From NCBI GenBank assembly GCA_963663165.1, contig OY760175.1:192001-256000 (forward strand): a stretch of DNA of 64,000 bases, in the 5' to 3' direction. Made by a program: the position numbers. Origin of the DNA: an uncultured Desulfospira sp. (lineage in GTDB: Bacteria; Desulfobacterota; Desulfobacteria; Desulfobacterales; Desulfobacteraceae). Every line of letters starts with the position of its first letter. The stretch's first letter is position 1. Below are positions 32,701-38,700 of the stretch, piece after piece.

Positions 32701-35700
32701 CAGGCAAGAGGCTAACCGGTAAAACGCCTTGAGTTCGCAGTCCTGCTTATCATTAGCGGTATCTCCTTCGGTGTAGCTCAGGATTTCGCTTATCAGCGGA
32801 ATGCTCATGCCATCGGAAAACGCAAGATTAGCTTCCAGAACATAGACATGATACTGTTTCCTGGTGCCATCCTCTTTCTTGATGTTACGTTCCAGGCACT
32901 CTTCATCCCAAAGCCAGTCGCGTTTGAATTTACCTGTACCATCTATGGCAATCGGATAACAGCCATTGACCAGGTACCGTCGAAATTTCTTTTTCCGGAT
33001 CAGATCTCTGACCAGATCGAGATGAAGCTTCTTGATTTGATTGATATCAATCTTAGACAATAGGCGTTTTAACGTATCATGATGGGGAAGCGTTTCAAGC
33101 TCCGGGAAAAAATATTGAAGATTCTTCCAGAACATCGGCCGGCTCATTTCTTTGTTGGCCTCACGGCAAGAAGCCATCTGAAACACAAAGGTCAGTATCC
33201 CATAGATCATGAGTGTGGATATTTGGTGTTTTATCTTCTTAGGGTTTCGAGGGTCTTCAATCTTGGCCATACGTTTGAGCAGAATGGGCAGCTTAGCGCG
33301 AAAAATACTCATTTTCTCAGCCACGGCCTCATTGCGGATGCGCCCCTCCTGTTCTACACTTTCATATCGGCATTTGCAGTTAGAAATTGTGCCATGAGAG
33401 GGCGGCTGAAATCCCCTGGCCTCTTCATCCCGACGTAATTTTCTCTGCTCCTTTTTAAACTGCTTTCTTTTGGCCTTTATCTCCTCACGATTGGGGCGTC
33501 GGATAGGCTTGCTCATCCGATCTGCCTCAAAACCTGACGGAAATTATTCACCAGCGGATAAACGAAGATTTTTTTGGGACTGGTCCTGTAACTTCTACCC
33601 TGCCGGACAAGCCCCTTTCCGCTGGTCATGCCAAGGTGTCTAAAATTGGCCGCCCGATAGCACGTCCCATCGAAGTGTTGTGGGTCGACAAAGGTCTCCA
33701 GCAAAGCCGGCCGATACCCCCAGCTCCGCTCCCAGTCTTGCACCAGATCTCTGACAATTTTACCCAATACGTGACTTGCCAGATACCGGACCTTGACCCA
33801 CGGAAAAATCAGGAAGCGTCCATTGTTTACAACAAATCCCAAGTTTCTTAAGCGTTCGTTGGTGCTCCAGCCGATCCATCGATCCCTCGGGGTCAGCGCC
33901 TTGGCCGCCCCTGAGAACAGCATACATCCCAATATGCGCTCTTGAGCTTGTATCAAATAACGCAGATGACATCCGAACGGCCGCTTGTAGCCAAGATAAT
34001 GGTAACGGTGCAGGTATTCATTAACCAGTGAGCGTTCTTCCGTGTCTTGTGCGACCCTGACAACGATCGGCCCGATATCCGAAAGCGTGCCCGCTACCTT
34101 ATCTTGGGGCTGGGTCCTGTCGTCCGCTACCGGCAGTTTCTGTTGAGAGCCCTTTATGGGACCGAGTTTCTCTTTTTCAGGCAACCGTATGAGACCTTGG
34201 GACTCCAGTCGCAGAAGCAATTTCCGGCAGGCATCCACCTTGTTCCTACCAGAAGCGGTATACCAGCCCAAATGTTCGCATATTGTATGAGCCAGTTCAG
34301 TCTGACTCAAATTCGAAAAGGTCTCTACTGTCTCGCAAATCTGTATAAGCTCTTCGTCTTTAATTTTCCGGCCACATTGGACAATCACGACATCCTCCTC
34401 TTCAAATGTAGTGTCTCGATTGGGGGGGCGCTCATTCGTACCCTATGCTACATTATCAAAAGGCCGAAATTTTGTCTATTTAAATTTTGCGACAAAATAA
34501 TTTTGGATATCGAGCTGCGTCATTGATATCATTGACTATAAATTTTCATGCGTCAGCACTGTGTCTGGGTTCCGAAATACCGTTTTCGGATATTGGGCGG
34601 TGAAATAGGGAGAGAGGTTGAGAACTGCATCAGAGCTTTTGCTGAACAAAAAAGTTGTGAGGTCGTGGAGTTGAATGTTCAAATAGACCATGTTCATCTG
34701 TTGGTCAAAGTACCACCCAAACTATCAATCTCGGATTTCATGGGCATTGTTAAAGGCCGGACGGCGATACGGGTTTTTAATAAATTCAAGAATCTGAAGA
34801 AAAGGCCCTATTGGGGTAATAAGTTTTGGGCACGCGGATATTGTGTTGATACAGTTGGCCTTGACGCTGATATGATACGAAAGTATGTGAAATATCAAGA
34901 ACGAAAAGAAAAACGAGCCGAACAGTTAGATCTGTTTAGCTAAAATTAAAACGGGACGCTTCCCTTGCCCCCTCAGGGGGCAAGGCATACTAACCCCTTT
35001 TAGGGGTTCCCAAAGCCTGGCCCTCTGGGCCAGGATATTTACTGGCATGAACTGACATGTATCCAATTTTTCCGTTTTTCATGCTGCATTGAATACTCTG
35101 CCCTCCCAAAAAAAGCTGGACTCCTGGCTCATGAAAGGTTATATAGATTTGCATGAGCAGGACTTTAACCATTCAAGGACGTGAATTTTCAGAAGTTGAT
35201 ATACAAACGATACGCCATTTGATTAACGACAATCCCGCCTGGCACCGCACTCGTTTATCCAAAGAATTGTGTGCTCGCTGGGATTGGCGCACGGAAAAAG
35301 GTCTGCTCAAGGACATGGCCTGTCGAAGCATGCTGAGAAAACTTGAGCAAAAAGGGATGGTCACACTTCCCGTTGCCCGTCATAGCGGTAACCGTCAGCG
35401 GCGTATTCCCGATGTCCCCCATGATTGTAAGCCGATAGAAACCACTTTGCGTAAGATCCGCCCGATACAATTGATACCGGTATCGGGCCGTGGAGATATT
35501 GATGATTTATTCCATTGCCTTATGGATCGATATCATTACCTTGGGTGTAAAGGGTATGTCGGAGAACATATGAAGTATATGGCTTTTGATCGCAATTCTC
35601 GTCCGGTTGCCTGCCTGCTTTTTGGCTCAGCAGCATGGAAAACGGCCCCTCGTGACCGATTCATCGGTTGGGATAGGTCGGCTCGTCGCAGGAACCTGCA

Positions 35701-38700
35701 TATGACGACCAACAATACCCGATTTTTGATTTTGCCATGGATTCGAATTCCCCATCTTGCCAGTCATATTCTGGGTTCATGTCTTAGGCGGCTGAGCCGG
35801 GACTGGACAGCTAAATATGGTCACGATATCTGTCTGGTAGAAACTTTCGTGGATCGATCACGCTTTGCCGGAACTTGCTACCAGGCGGCAAATTGGCAAA
35901 AAATTGGTCAAAGCAAAGGGCGAAGCCGTCAAGACAGGCACCACAGACTTCAGGTGCCGATAAAAGACATCTATGTATACCCGTTGACTTCCAATTATAA
36001 AAAGCAGCTATGCACACAACCTTGAGGGTTTCAGTCATCGAAATGACAGGTAATTTTTCAACCTGCAATTCGAGGACTGATCATGAAACTTGCTTCCACT
36101 ATAAGGGATATTCGAACCCTTCTAACAAAAGCCGTAGCTGATTTCCAAAACCATCAAAATGCTAATATCCTGTGTGAGCAGGTACGGAACGGCCTCTTCA
36201 TTATTGTGGAAGCATTTCTGGTTCCCGTCATTGAAAAGGCACTGTCTGACCCGGATCTTTTATCTGAACTGAAAATTGGTGCCGGTAAAAAGGGACTGCG
36301 TTTCAACGGATACCGCCCCAGCAGCATTCGATTATTGACAGGAACTACCCTGAGCATCCGATCCCCTTACTTTTCAAAAGTTGTTTCCAAACAACGGCCA
36401 GGCCCTAAAACAAAAAAACGACAAAAGGGGACAGGCCGCCATTTTGGGCTTGATTACCTTGGTTTTATCGGCAGGTGTTCAACGCTGTTCGCTTCGTCGG
36501 TGGTCCATGCAGCATTGCTCTGTCCCTCTTTTGAAATTGCCCGAAGATCCCTGGAAAACCATGCAATCAACTTAAATGTCAAAACCATACGCCGCATAAC
36601 AATGAATCTTGCACAGGAAGCTATGCCCCTGCGTGGCCGGGTATCTTTTGGAGATACTGATCGCGTTGGTGGCAAAACGGTTCTGGTTTGTATCGACGGC
36701 GGTCGCCTTCGAGAACGGAGGCCAAAACGGGGACGTAAATCAAAAGGCCAAAAGCGGCAGGGATATCATGCTGAATGGAAAGAACCCATTCAGTTTGTCA
36801 TACATATTGTCGATCCGGACGGCACAATATCCAAAAAACACTTGCCGGTTTATGATGCCACAATGGGCGGTATTGATGCCGCTTTTGATATTCTTGAGAT
36901 CTACTTGCGTGAATTAGATATTCCCAAAGCCAAGCGTGTTGTTTTCTGCTGTGACGGTGCACGTAGCTATTGGAAGCGAACAGGCCCGCTGGCCAAACGG
37001 CTTGAAATCGAATCCTATTATGAGGTAATCGACTACACCCATGCAAAACAGAATTTACATGAAATCGTGGACAAATTGCCAAAGAGAATCCCTATAAAAG
37101 AAAGAAACCGGATAGCAGAATCTTGGAAGAACCTCCTTTGGGATGGCAGATTCAAAGACCTTAGAAAAGAAATTGTAAAACACATTACGTACCCTAAAAG
37201 GCGCATAGAAGCACTATCCAAATTTAAAAGTTACTTCGTGAAAAATCGAAACAGAATGCAGTATCGCCAGTTCCGCAGCCTGAAAATACCTACTGGCAGC
37301 GGCTGTGTTGAAAGTGCAATACGTCGGGTTATAAATCTCAGAATGAAATCACCGGGTATATTCTGGAAACCGGAAACATCCGAATCAATGTTGTTCTTAA
37401 GGAGTCAGCTCCTTTCCGGGAGGTGGAACATCTTGACTGACAATATCTTCATACAAATTCGGTCACTTTGCTTAGGCCACTAAATGGGAATGCACCCCCT
37501 TTGATTGTATTTTCCTGGGAAATTTCCATTTTCGACATTTTTTATTATCTCTTTTGCATTAGATATATCCCTCCTAAAGGTCCTTATAACAGCGTCATCG
37601 TCGCCACTTCGATTTGGATCTATCTTATTTATAATGGCTTTTATAGTTAATCCCTCCTGCTTTAAATCAAAAATTTTAAGGTATCGCTCGATTTCATCAT
37701 AGCGAATGACTTTTTTTCTATATTTTGCAATTTCGTCTTGGATTATTTTTAGAACCTTTGGTTTTGCCATTCTGTATGGCTCAATAACAAATGCCCAGTT
37801 CTTTCTAAATTTTGTCTGTGAGTCATCAAAAAGGAAATTTTTAAATTCTTGTATCGTTGGATCTCTACCTAATGTGCGTTTAAGGAAGCATATGCTACCA
37901 TCAATTTCTTCTTTCAGGTAATCATCATATTGCCGAATACACATTTTCTGTTGAGCTTTTTCGTTATTTTTAAAACAACTTATTTTATATTCATACCATT
38001 CTTCAAAAGTAAGCTGATGGATATCTAAATTGTGTAGATAGGTATAAACAATTTTTGTACAAGATTGAGGGTGATTGGGATTTATGAATTTATCAGGAAG
38101 GGGTTTGTCAGTCCGCATATGTTCACAGAGTTCTCGATAGTTTTCGCTCCGATGTAAATATTCCCACCATAACTTATAAAATTGTTTAGGATAGTCTGAA
38201 TGTCTCATCTTATAACCCCTGCATGATCCCTGATTAAAGAACCCTGGGAAAGACGGTTCAGGGAAGCCGCCTTTTCAACCCCGGTGATCAGCCGGGATCT
38301 ATCCCAGGAAGACAGAATTATTCAAAGGCTTTCCGGTCTATGCCGGATTGCCTGATAATTGAAAGCAGGGTCCCCTTTTTCAGTTCCTTGTGGTCAGGAA
38401 CCGGAACGGTGATGGTGGACCCTTCAATTTTCTTTTGCATAATCACATGACTGCCTTTTTGACGGATTTCTTCAAATCCATGGGCAGACAATATTGAACA
38501 GGTTTCCTTTCCAGATAAGACCCGCAGCTTAACCAACGGCAACCTCCATCTGGGTGATGTAAATTTCCCCTTTAAGCCGGGTTTCTATTTCTTCCGGGGA
38601 TGCACATTCAAAAAATAATTCAAGGGCTTCCTGCAAATTCCCCCTTGCCTCAGCAACGGTTTCCCCCTGGCTGGCTATGTCCAGTTCCGGACACAAGGAA

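Follow-up and report, generated by a model that had tools for sequence, protein, structure and literature searches.

A DruA-like gene with a predicted Mom-like fold accompanies transposases of several insertion sequence families in an uncultured Desulfospira sp.

Background

Canonical IS66 elements have the gene order tnpA-tnpB-tnpC (names after ISfinder usage). [quoted passage not shown] It is described as an anti-restriction enzyme, with co-substrates that are not predictable from its structure according to the authors of the Mom paper (PMC13219725). DUF4338, the Pfam domain PF14236 of the Druantia protein DruA, occurs in defence-island proteins and in a fusion to DndF (PMC10853773). Among insertion sequences, ISTni1 of Thioalkalivibrio nitratireducens (ISKra4 family) is listed with DUF4338 as an 'Additional ORF' (Guerillot 2014, Table S1, PMC3942029). 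The element has two genes in about 2.4 kb, a 455-aa ISKra4-group transposase and 22-nt inverted repeats starting with GGG (PMC3942029). Where the paper mentions such additional ORFs, it gives them no function and calls them 'of unknown function' (PMC3942029). The Table S1 entry qualifies the statement in the genome-wide survey's note, according to which no paper connects DUF4338 with ISs.

Structure of the ISKra4-type element

The window, a DNA stretch of 64,000 nucleotides, carries a DruA-like gene of 290 aa (35153-36025, plus strand) followed by a co-oriented gene of 466 aa (36083-37483, plus strand), the same two ORFs that the survey had described. The first is supported by Pfam, an AF2 model, structure matches, conserved residues and dN/dS; its PF14236 match has an E value of 3.5e-36, and the weak match to Mom (PF25680, E 0.011) was reproduced.

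The 466-aa protein, reported as having no family hit, indeed has none in Pfam, but it matched the NCBIfam model NF033572 (ISKra4 family transposase) with E 2.1e-30, below the curated cut-off. The same model was matched by 60 of 60 relatives, out of 4046 found at E<=1e-3 (50% clusters), and D205, D291 and E410 are invariant in the alignment. Judged by sequence, the protein is an ISKra4-family DDE transposase of the Mutator superfamily, with which the ISCth4/IS256-like fold noted earlier agrees.

The borders of the element required revision. The survey placed it at 35025-37497; however, 35025-35036 holds no IS sequence, and homology to 11 other places in the genome begins at 35037. The right terminal inverted repeat (TIR) GGGTGCATTCCCATTTAGTGGC (37476-37497, minus strand), with one mismatch to the left repeat, is followed by the 9-bp sequence cctttgatt (37498-37506). 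An identical 9-bp copy lies at 31576-31584, and the first 19 nt of the left TIR (19/22 nt of the repeat that is uninterrupted in other genome copies) stand beside it at 31585-31603 on the plus strand, split from the remainder by nested insertions. Because cctttgatt flanks both 31585 and 37497 and the left repeat begins at 31585, the real span of the window copy is 31585-37497, with a perfect 9-bp target site duplication (TSD) on both sides. The rest of the left end, which starts with ATTTACTGGC (the final 10 nt of the TIR, one of them mismatched), lies at 35037-35152 (plus strand) together with the DruA-like gene's leader. The element is 2473 bp long, its repeats begin with GGGTGCA, and about 3.4 kb of nested ISs break it. 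The window copy is of the ISTni1 type within the ISKra4 family, and nested IS insertions have disabled its left end.

Compared by its listed description, ISTni1 resembles the window element in its DUF4338 ORF, its ISKra4 transposase (455 vs 466 aa) and the GGG at the start of its repeats, and its printed start puts an ORF near the left end. ISTni1 is listed with DR 0, whereas the window-type element makes 9-bp duplications.

Nested insertions

The left end is interrupted by an IS200/IS605-like element (31604-35036, plus strand), present as 31604-31784 and 34562-35036 or 35043, the right border having a 7-nt ambiguity (ATTTAGT/ATTTACT). Its Y1_Tnp ORF (E 2.4e-37) runs from near 31723 and resumes in frame at 34562; near-identical GC-rich hairpins lie at 31617-31636 and 35016-35035. 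Both stretches are single-copy in the genome.

This element is itself broken by an ISAs1-like IS of 2777 bp (31785-34561, minus strand), whose ends were read as a 17-nt TIR CAGTGCTGACGCATGAA and a 9-bp TSD, tgtctgggt (31776-31784 and 34562-34570). Elsewhere in the genome it has nine further full copies and one split copy at 99.7-100% identity. It carries its own DruA-like gene of 291 aa (33513-34388, minus strand; PF14236 E 3e-40), 37% identical to the ISKra4-type paralog; the end of this 291-aa gene overlaps the transposase start by 4 nt. The 508-aa transposase (31990-33516, minus strand) has an ISAs1-type N-terminal domain (DDE_Tnp_1_assoc E 8.5e-12, over the cut-off; DDE_Tnp_1_4 E 4e-4), while its NCBIfam ISAs1 match reached only E 0.037.

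DruA-like genes across the genome

A six-frame search of the genome gave 24 PF14236 matches over the cut-off, all 24 inside mapped IS copies: 12 in ISKra4-type elements, 10 in ISAs1-like elements, one in an intact IS66 and one in a truncated IS66. The survey's three groups of 12, 10 and 1 copies were borne out, as was the location of all its 23 genes in ISs; the count rises by a 124-aa fragment within the truncated second IS66. Its description of DruA as the first gene of the IS fails for IS66, where the order is tnpA-tnpB-druA-tnpC and the gene is third. In every one of these 12 ISKra4-type, 10 ISAs1-like and two IS66 copies the DruA-like gene sits between the TIRs.

Copies of the ISKra4-type element are 99.7-99.9% identical; two of the 12 places with the gene are damaged, one by truncation and one by interruption, and one of the 10 ISAs1-like copies with a match is split. 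The 22-nt inverted repeat given by the survey, GGGTGCAATCCCATTTAGTGGC, borders the other ISKra4-type copies, with a chance expectation of the pattern in the window of 0.00 times. Most of these copies show target duplications of 9 bp, in one case apparently 10 bp.

Some toxins with a GNAT fold acetylate aminoacyl-tRNA. Charged tRNA is also bound by Mom-like enzymes (PMC13219725), and so a toxin or addiction module stabilising the IS in the genome was also considered. We regard this as highly improbable: the TIRs enclose no gene for a partner antitoxin, 22 copies that are intact or almost so are tolerated by the genome, and the fusions to transposases described below do not suit a toxin.

Predicted fold and conserved residues

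The 290-aa protein is predicted to consist of a winged-helix-like N-terminal domain (residues ~1-75), a linker and a Mom-like GNAT-fold domain (~98-289). The AF2 model had a pLDDT of 92.9, versus 71 for the earlier model, and upheld the survey's fold result, a small N-terminal helical domain plus a GNAT fold nearest Mom. Mom (8bv8) was the top match in both Foldseek (E 9.3e-6) and VIA-align (Z 14.4 over 171 residues, 16% identity; next GNAT 12.9). At the sequence level the link to Mom is weak: hhalign gave E 0.0073 at a probability of 5%, the Pfam Mom matches stayed under the cut-off (E 9.9e-5 for the IS66 paralog), and an A2 profile search of PDB sequences returned no match.

The hhalign alignment pairs H128/Y129, S204, D234 and Y243 with H58/Y59, S124, D149 and Y159 of Mom. 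The Mom mutant S124A is inactive, and H58A, Y59A and Y159A have drastically reduced activity (PMC13219725); activity of D149A was greatly reduced in earlier work cited there. Among free-standing DruA-like proteins, H128, Y129, R190 and Y243 are conserved in 67/67 and S204 in 66/67, with E230 likewise among the conserved residues; fused forms keep H128, R190, S204, E230 and Y243 in 111/111. Of three essential residues of Mom, two (R111 and R151) lack a counterpart at exactly the aligned position, although R190 and R237 lie nearby. The essential HTH-like insertion of Mom (175-209) is absent from DruA-like proteins, which have a conserved insertion of their own instead, with the invariant basic motif RDRxIGW...R; they also have the extra N-terminal winged-helix-like domain.

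A shared GNAT fold by itself says nothing of the substrate, and after Mom the strong structure matches are all N-acetyltransferases whose substrates are proteins or small amines (NatF Z 12.9, SpeG 12.7, RimI 12.5). The GNAT domain might accordingly switch transposition on or off by acetylating or otherwise acylating the transposase itself or a nucleoid or replication protein of the host, with the winged helix only bringing it to the transpososome; fusion to a transposase would then put the protein substrate in cis. We consider this unlikely, since both structure searches placed Mom at the top and no other family gave a sequence-level signal, and since the conserved Ser-His-Tyr set agrees with the Mom residues. 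Moreover, the acetyl-CoA loop of GNATs follows the motif Q/RxxGxG/A, and by reading of the sequence no such loop follows the strand at 185-193 (PHLASHILG); Mom, read in the same way, also has no canonical loop.

Many IS families encode small DNA-binding accessory proteins, and the winged-helix-like domain, the invariant basic motif, the first gene position and translational coupling would all suit a DNA- or RNA-binding adaptor or regulator, using an old enzyme fold as a scaffold for target choice, transposase repression or transpososome assembly. Across many phyla, the 67 free-standing and the 111 fused proteins keep the counterparts of the catalytic Ser, His-Tyr and Tyr of Mom (near-)invariant, which is hard to reconcile with a scaffold and makes this role quite unlikely.

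Our leading explanation, which we hold tentatively, is that the DruA-like gene is an integral, selected IS component encoding a catalytic partner of the transposase, neither cargo nor phage defence. We infer that the protein is catalytic and acts with the transposase; its target is probably nucleic acid, while a DNA base as substrate and the identity of the donor are speculative. The small domain would be the nucleic-acid-binding part; for the GNAT-fold part, Mom is the nearest relative among characterised proteins. The protein would be made along with the transposase, the two reading frames usually overlapping and many lineages having both joined in a single polypeptide. It would transfer an acyl or aminoacyl group to nucleic acid at the element or close by, either the donor ends or the target DNA, and this transfer might license, time or protect transposition. 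A conserved Mom-like gene in several IS families would then suggest that transposition involves a helper step which has hardly been described.

Occurrence in other bacteria

A gene resembling Mom lies beside or fused to a transposase in several IS families here and in many other bacteria. Among the 80 best-scoring loci of 584 relatives found with one query in genome_contigs, which come from many phyla and are not a random sample, a co-oriented transposase gene adjoins in 72 (64 IS66-type, 5 ISKra4-type and 3 ISAs1-like), in line with the survey's view of a recurrent IS-encoded accessory protein; no transposase was nearby in the other 8 of these best 80. As in this genome's IS66 copy, the gene follows tnpB and precedes an IS66 DDE transposase gene in 40 of the 80, an arrangement that differs from canonical IS66 by the fourth gene between tnpB and tnpC. 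At 22 further loci the IS66 transposase alone was seen adjoining, some of them at contig ends. A co-oriented downstream ORF was called at 59 loci; at 39 of them the two frames overlap, by 4 nt in 21.

The module matched 785 proteins of 509-2000 aa at E<=1e-5. In 111 of the best 120 long proteins, by our own count, it is followed by a Tn5-type transposase; other fusions have DDE_Tnp_1 or IS66 domains. The DruA-like gene is under purifying selection, with a dN/dS of 0.12-0.17, on par with its transposase (0.09-0.15).

Mom's anti-restriction role and the defence proteins of the wider DUF4338 family would be compatible with cargo serving host or vehicle, either a Mom-like modifier of incoming DNA or a DruA-related defence gene spread by ISs. 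Druantia type I DruA and other defence-island proteins share PF14236 and the RDRxIGW region with the IS type (hhalign E 9.7e-10, 119 columns). However, IS-type proteins cover only profile positions 3-225 of 297, the PADLOC DruA model reached only E 1.7e-4, and His-Tyr and Ser are missing from the defence-type protein in the hhalign alignment. IS-type genes are flanked by transposases and not by defence genes, and no druB-E genes lie beside any copy in this genome; the survey's claim that the genes never belong to Druantia stands. Mom belongs to the late genes of a phage and serves anti-restriction, whereas the DruA-like gene travels with transposases, fused or translationally coupled to several families and always on the upstream side. 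Searches gave 0 matches in 50,697 phage records and only 2 in 72,556 plasmid records. Cargo is improbable on these grounds. Overall, the survey's observation is partly confirmed and its interpretation supported.

In the tree, a single clade unites the IS-borne proteins, at a long distance from the defence type; the only starred branch is the very long one to two defence-type outgroup rows. Inside this clade the partner families group together, and each of the three paralogs of this genome belongs to a different subclade, which indicates that the association is old and that the transposase family was switched several times. One plasmid CDS named 'ISAs1 family transposase' by NCBI is itself a fusion of DruA, DDE_Tnp_1_assoc and DDE_Tnp_1.

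Nested insertion sequences in the window

The DruA-like gene lies at 35153–36025 (+) and encodes 290 aa; it matches PF14236 (E 3.5e-36) and, weakly, the Pfam Mom family PF25680 (E 0.011). The 466-aa transposase ORF begins 57 nt after it, at 36083–37483 (+). BLASTN of 34801–37700 against the genome found 11 more places with 99.7–99.9% identity; in all of them homology begins at window position 35037, and in most it stops at 37497. The 22-nt inverted repeat described in the genome-wide survey's note was recovered at both ends of the other ISKra4-type copies, with 9-bp target duplications at most copies and an apparent 10-bp duplication at one.

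The first 12 nt of the repeat are missing at 35025–35036 of the window copy. The first 19 nt of the left repeat were found at 31585–31603; one copy of the 9-mer cctttgatt immediately precedes 31585, and another immediately follows 37497. The split repeat halves and the flanking 9-mer therefore place the window copy at 31585–37497, with its left repeat divided; the single uninterrupted element at 35025–37497 proposed earlier has to be abandoned.

The DNA between the repeat halves is an IS200/IS605-like element with a Y1 transposase (E 2.4e-37) and near-identical GC-rich hairpins near both ends, and it is single-copy in the genome. Its tnpA is split by the ISAs1-like IS (2777 bp, 31785–34561), which has a 17-nt TIR and a 9-bp duplication, tgtctgggt. 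The window thus holds three nested ISs (IS200/IS605-like within ISKra4-type, ISAs1-like within IS200/IS605-like), two of which carry a DruA-like gene. Both outer elements in 31585–37497 are interrupted. The ISKra4-type and the ISAs1-like element each still have an intact target duplication. This arrangement gives the relative order in which the three were inserted.

Transposase families and earlier records

The 466-aa protein had been described as lacking a family. It indeed has no Pfam match, but it matches the NCBIfam ISKra4 family transposase model NF033572 with E 2.1e-30 (106 bits, below the curated 205); the ISLre2 NCBIfam model gave E 6e-5. Relatives numbered 4046 at E ≤ 1e-3 among 50%-identity clusters, and all 60 aligned full-length relatives matched the ISKra4 model at E ≤ 1e-5 (best 1.7e-51). 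D205, D291 and E410 are invariant across the 60 aligned transposases and probably form the DDE catalytic triad. The TIR begins GGGTGCA and most copies have 9-bp TSDs, in line with ISKra4 elements; Table S1 of PMC3942029 gives ISAcas3 and ISAcce1 direct repeats of 9 and the ends GGGCGTA/GGGTGCA. The ISCth4-like fold reported for the 466-aa protein agrees with this assignment, as ISKra4 (p-MULT 4) belongs, together with IS256, to the prokaryotic Mutator-like superfamily as laid out by Guerillot et al. 2014 (PMC3942029).

For the 508-aa transposase, the ISAs1-type N-terminal domain DDE_Tnp_1_assoc scored 45.4 bits, above its cut-off of 32.3, whereas the NCBIfam ISAs1 model NF033564 gave 13.2 bits (below 70) and the IS1380 model likewise barely matched. 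For this reason the element is labelled ISAs1-like.

The presence of DUF4338 in an ISKra4 element is already on record, contrary to the note's statement that no paper links this domain to ISs. In Table S1 of PMC3942029, ISTni1, an ISKra4-family element of 2377 bp whose transposase has 455 aa, is entered with 'DUF4338' as 'Additional ORF' and no assigned function; the text of the paper goes no further than crediting four ISKra4 elements with genes of unknown function. A literature search, mostly at title and abstract level, returned no paper discussing an association of DUF4338, PF14236 or DruA with ISs, this supplementary table being the only link found. A YprA-helicase preprint names Druantia but does not deal with DruA.

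DruA-like genes across the genome

A six-frame search of the genome gave 24 PF14236 matches above the cut-off. Twelve belong to ISKra4-type copies (one truncated, and the DruA-like gene interrupted in another), ten to ISAs1-like copies (one split), one to an IS66 element and one, a 124-aa fragment, to a second, truncated IS66. The survey's view that all such genes lie inside ISs was therefore upheld, with its count of 23 corrected to 24. Its statement that the DruA-like gene comes first in the IS holds for the ISKra4-type window copy but not for IS66, where the order is a 137-aa ORF, TnpB_IS66, the DruA-like gene (298 aa) and DDE_Tnp_IS66. This intact IS66 locus (L001) has tnpB (PF05717, E 1.1e-29) and DDE_Tnp_IS66 (PF03050, E 4.5e-50) between 22-nt inverted repeats at 2474–2495 and 5866–5887 of the locus; no target duplication was recognisable at its ends.

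The mutual identity of the three DruA-like paralogs of this genome is only 37–40%. Exchange inside the genome was considered as their origin and rejected on account of this divergence and because each falls in a clade of its own, alongside relatives from other phyla.

Association with transposases in other genomes

A word-indexed search returned 7964 clusters at E ≤ 1e-5, and many of the top matches lie on contigs of IS length (~2.4–2.7 kb). Scanning a single genome per species gave 584 relatives, the best 80 loci of which were examined; these are the best-scoring loci and not a random sample. They come from Desulfobacterota-type, Verrucomicrobiota, Acidobacteriota, Planctomycetota, Chloroflexota, Gemmatimonadota, Proteobacteria, Chlamydiota and other records. 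Among these 80, co-oriented downstream ORFs matched DDE_Tnp_IS66 in 45/60 cases and upstream ORFs matched TnpB_IS66 in 32/59.

With partner typing supplemented by tblastn using this genome's own transposases, 64 of the best 80 loci were IS66-type (tnpB and tnpC in 40, tnpC only in 22, tnpB only in 2, some limited by contig ends), five ISKra4-type and three ISAs1-like. Eight showed no partner: one was cut by another IS, one had a DDE_Tnp_1 gene on the opposite strand, one was near an integrase and one lay on a contig too short to judge; nothing recognisable was found near the others. A co-oriented downstream ORF was called in 59 loci; the DruA-like frame overlaps it in 39 of these, by 4 nt in 21, counts that may be inflated because each ORF start was taken as the first start codon.

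The module also occurs within transposases: 785 proteins of 509–2000 aa matched it at E ≤ 1e-5. Tnp_DNA_bind, mostly together with Dimer_Tnp_Tn5, was present in 111 of the best 120 of these by table count; in one such protein (P0127) the DruA-like part extends to residue 257, followed by the Tn5 DNA-binding domain (300–356) and the Tn5 dimerisation domain (656–739). Two others (P0157 and P0206) combine the DruA-like part with DDE_Tnp_1, and P0135 combines it with zf-IS66 and DDE_Tnp_IS66. A Thiodictyon plasmid CDS annotated by NCBI as 'ISAs1 family transposase' consists of DruA, DDE_Tnp_1_assoc and DDE_Tnp_1. Single cases of IstB with DruA and of an IS66 fragment with DruA may reflect read-through or nested insertions. 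Neither the 508-aa nor the 466-aa transposase had a blastp match among the 120 listed fused proteins, and the fused transposases therefore represent other lineages. Through adjacency and fusions, the module is thus tied to no fewer than five kinds of DDE transposase, whether by physical linkage or by coupling.

Relation to Druantia DruA

Druantia type I, as Doron et al. are said to have described it in 2018, has druA in an operon with druB–druE, including the large DruE helicase. No Druantia genes were found beside any of the 24 genomic PF14236 matches, all of which are in IS copies adjoining transposase genes. The PADLOC DruA model PDLC00002 (407 positions) matched the IS-type protein only at positions 88–169, with E 1.7e-4 and 18.8 bits; defence-type proteins of other genomes matched it at positions 16–382 with E 2e-109. 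The earlier conclusion that these genes are not part of a Druantia system was borne out by this partial match and by the location of all 24 matches.

Pfam separates the two types by extent. The window protein exceeds the PF14236 gathering cut-off of 27 bits with 125.3 bits, covering only positions 3–225 of 297; IS-type matches end near position 226, whereas full-length matches (positions 2–297) are of the defence type. PF14236 was found in 66 genomes of a 401-genome sample of the window's phylum and a PADLOC DruA match (E ≤ 1e-10) in 7, and many of the IS-type proteins lie in frames of 700–800 aa. The IS-type module is the bulk of Pfam 'DruA', and pipelines that equate PF14236 with phage defence will over-call Druantia components.

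Two defence-type loci with a strong PADLOC DruA match were opened (L093, G088:C1:510000–529500; L094, G257:C1:712000–731500). They share a conserved trio of a DruA-type gene, a HerA-like ATPase and an unassigned gene of 377–388 aa, and in L093 a HEC-05-like gene and then a type IIG restriction-modification gene stand beside the trio. This arrangement is not the textbook druA–E operon either. Aligned by hhalign with one defence-type protein, the IS profile matched in the central region only (E 9.7e-10), with the His-Tyr pair and the Ser outside it.

A quick ML tree was built with 79 rows; its root rests on a distant outgroup of two defence-type rows, and several rows have long branches. IS-type proteins group together there as a single clade, whose only star is on the long branch to the outgroup. 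The ISKra4, Tn5-fused and DDE_Tnp_1-fused groups each form one starred clade, canonical IS66 proteins largely form one, and this genome's three paralogs fall in three different parts.

Predicted structure and putative active site

The AF2 model built from a 67-sequence alignment (pLDDT 92.9, pTM 0.81) shows a beta-hairpin and three-helix domain (5–66), a linker and an alpha/beta domain (98–289). Foldseek with the whole model ranked the phage Mu protein Mom (8bv8) first (E 9.3e-6, 18% identity), followed by 138 other GNATs at E ≤ 1e-3. VIA-align likewise placed Mom first of 999 chains (Z 14.4, rmsd 4.2, 171 residues aligned), ahead of NatF (Z 12.9) and SpeG (Z 12.7) over ~145–166 residues. The predicted model has a GNAT fold with Mom as its nearest solved structure, and DUF4338 has been called a GNAT domain fused to DndF (PMC10853773). 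At the sequence level, the Pfam Mom cut-off of 27.1 bits was not reached by the window protein (15.9) or the IS66 paralog (22.5), and a profile of 67 DruA-like proteins gave no match to PDB sequences at E ≤ 10.

The N-terminal domain folded alone (pLDDT 85.9) had no Foldseek match at E ≤ 0.001. VIA-align against 48,161 chains gave weak matches (top Z 5.6), mostly to winged-helix domains, several of which come from structures that include DNA, and the predicted domain can be called only winged-helix-like.

Mom builds N6-carbamoylmethyl-adenine in DNA from glycyl-tRNA; its active-site residues are H58, Y59, R111, S124, D149, R151 and Y159, and activity was undetectable in R111A, S124A and R151A (PMC13219725, 2026). 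The numbering of Mu Mom in AF083977 equals that of PMC13219725 minus 10, which fits 7/7 named residues. In an hhalign alignment of the DruA-like profile to AF083977, with E 0.0073 and a probability of only 5%, H128/Y129 correspond to H58/Y59, S204 to S124, D234 to D149 and Y243 to Y159, while R237 is one column off R151 and R190 a few residues off R111, so that these two are nearby arginines only. Among the 67 free-standing proteins, H128, Y129, R190, E230 and Y243 are each conserved in 67/67, S204 in 66/67, D234 in 62/67 (54 D and 8 E) and R237 in 60/67; H128, R190, S204, E230 and Y243 are each present in 111/111 fused proteins.

Two features set the families apart. The HTH-like insertion at residues 175–209, also essential in Mom (PMC13219725), is replaced in the DruA-like model by a loop of only ~17 residues between strands 249–253 and 271–277. 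A 13-residue insertion, RDRFIGWDRSARR, is specific to DUF4338 and includes the invariant residues R167, D168, I171, G172, W173 and R178. Prediction of a complex between the DruA-like protein and the ISKra4-type transposase, both supplied as alignments, scored 0.00, which is evidence neither way.

Selection and possible function

Comparison of the window element with its relatives L004 and L005 gave a dN/dS of 0.12–0.17 for the DruA-like gene and 0.09–0.15 for the transposase. The gene is firmly shown to belong to the ISs, to be conserved as strongly as the transposase and to be retained across switches of transposase family, often fused to the transposase; alignment and predicted model together suggest that its product keeps a Mom-like pocket. 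These properties argue for a putative catalytic partner in transposition and against cargo. A further point against cargo is that tblastn with the DruA-like protein found no match in 50,697 phage records and only two matching records among 72,556 plasmid records.

The likeness to Mom favours a nucleic acid as the putative substrate, as do the winged-helix-like domain, the basic insertion of DUF4338 and the DNA-centred contexts in which the whole superfamily occurs. The protein may instead be a protein acyltransferase, or it may act as a non-catalytic adaptor. Returning to a nucleic acid substrate, a much more specific version appears rather unlikely to us: DruA-like proteins would be Mom-type transferases that covalently hypermodify DNA bases from a charged tRNA or acyl donor, a step obligatory for DDE transposition and marking the element ends or the target. 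They would have been recruited independently by, or passed among, at least five families (IS66, ISKra4, ISAs1-like, Tn5-like IS4 and other DDE_Tnp_1), and the Druantia- and Dnd-linked DUF4338 proteins would be defence-side derivatives.

The usual view is that an IS needs just a transposase, at times aided by a small regulator. In many phyla, transposases belonging to several families are accompanied by, or fused to, a Mom-like module that is strongly conserved and probably catalytic. Should this module modify nucleic acid or the transposase, that would be a new biochemical step in transposition and, if true, also a testable lead on what DruA does in Druantia.

Insertion sites and flanking sequences

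TTGA or TTCGA occurs in four of the nine clear ISKra4-type target duplications (cctttgatt, actttgaat, ccgtttgagg and cttcgatta). Insertion upstream of sigma-A promoters is reported for some members of the ISKra4 group (Guerillot et al. 2014, PMC3942029).

Outside the window, two ISKra4-type copies at C1:5391138–5393597 and C1:5409906–5412366 have the same orientation and lie ~16 kb apart. Their flanks are exchanged: the 9-mer preceding the first copy is identical to the one that follows the second, and the two inner flanks agree. A cointegrate leaves this signature, as does recombination of a chromosomal copy with a copy on a circular molecule.

At C1:1865473–1878848 there is an IS pile-up: the intact IS66 element and an ISAs1-like copy lie within ~3 kb of each other, the latter interrupted by a 4.3-kb insertion, and an IS4-like DUF4277 transposase gene stands between the two. 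A 16.9-kb contig with a quite different taxon label (L003) carries the same element, with a DruA-like protein 100% and a transposase 99.6% identical; the contig may have been mis-binned and stem from the same organism or a very close one.

In the window, the ISKra4-type element is inserted into the final codons of a 242-aa ORF (37480–38208, −). The reconstructed empty site ends in NQR-stop, and the present ORF ends in NQRGCIPI-stop by way of codons from the IS repeat.
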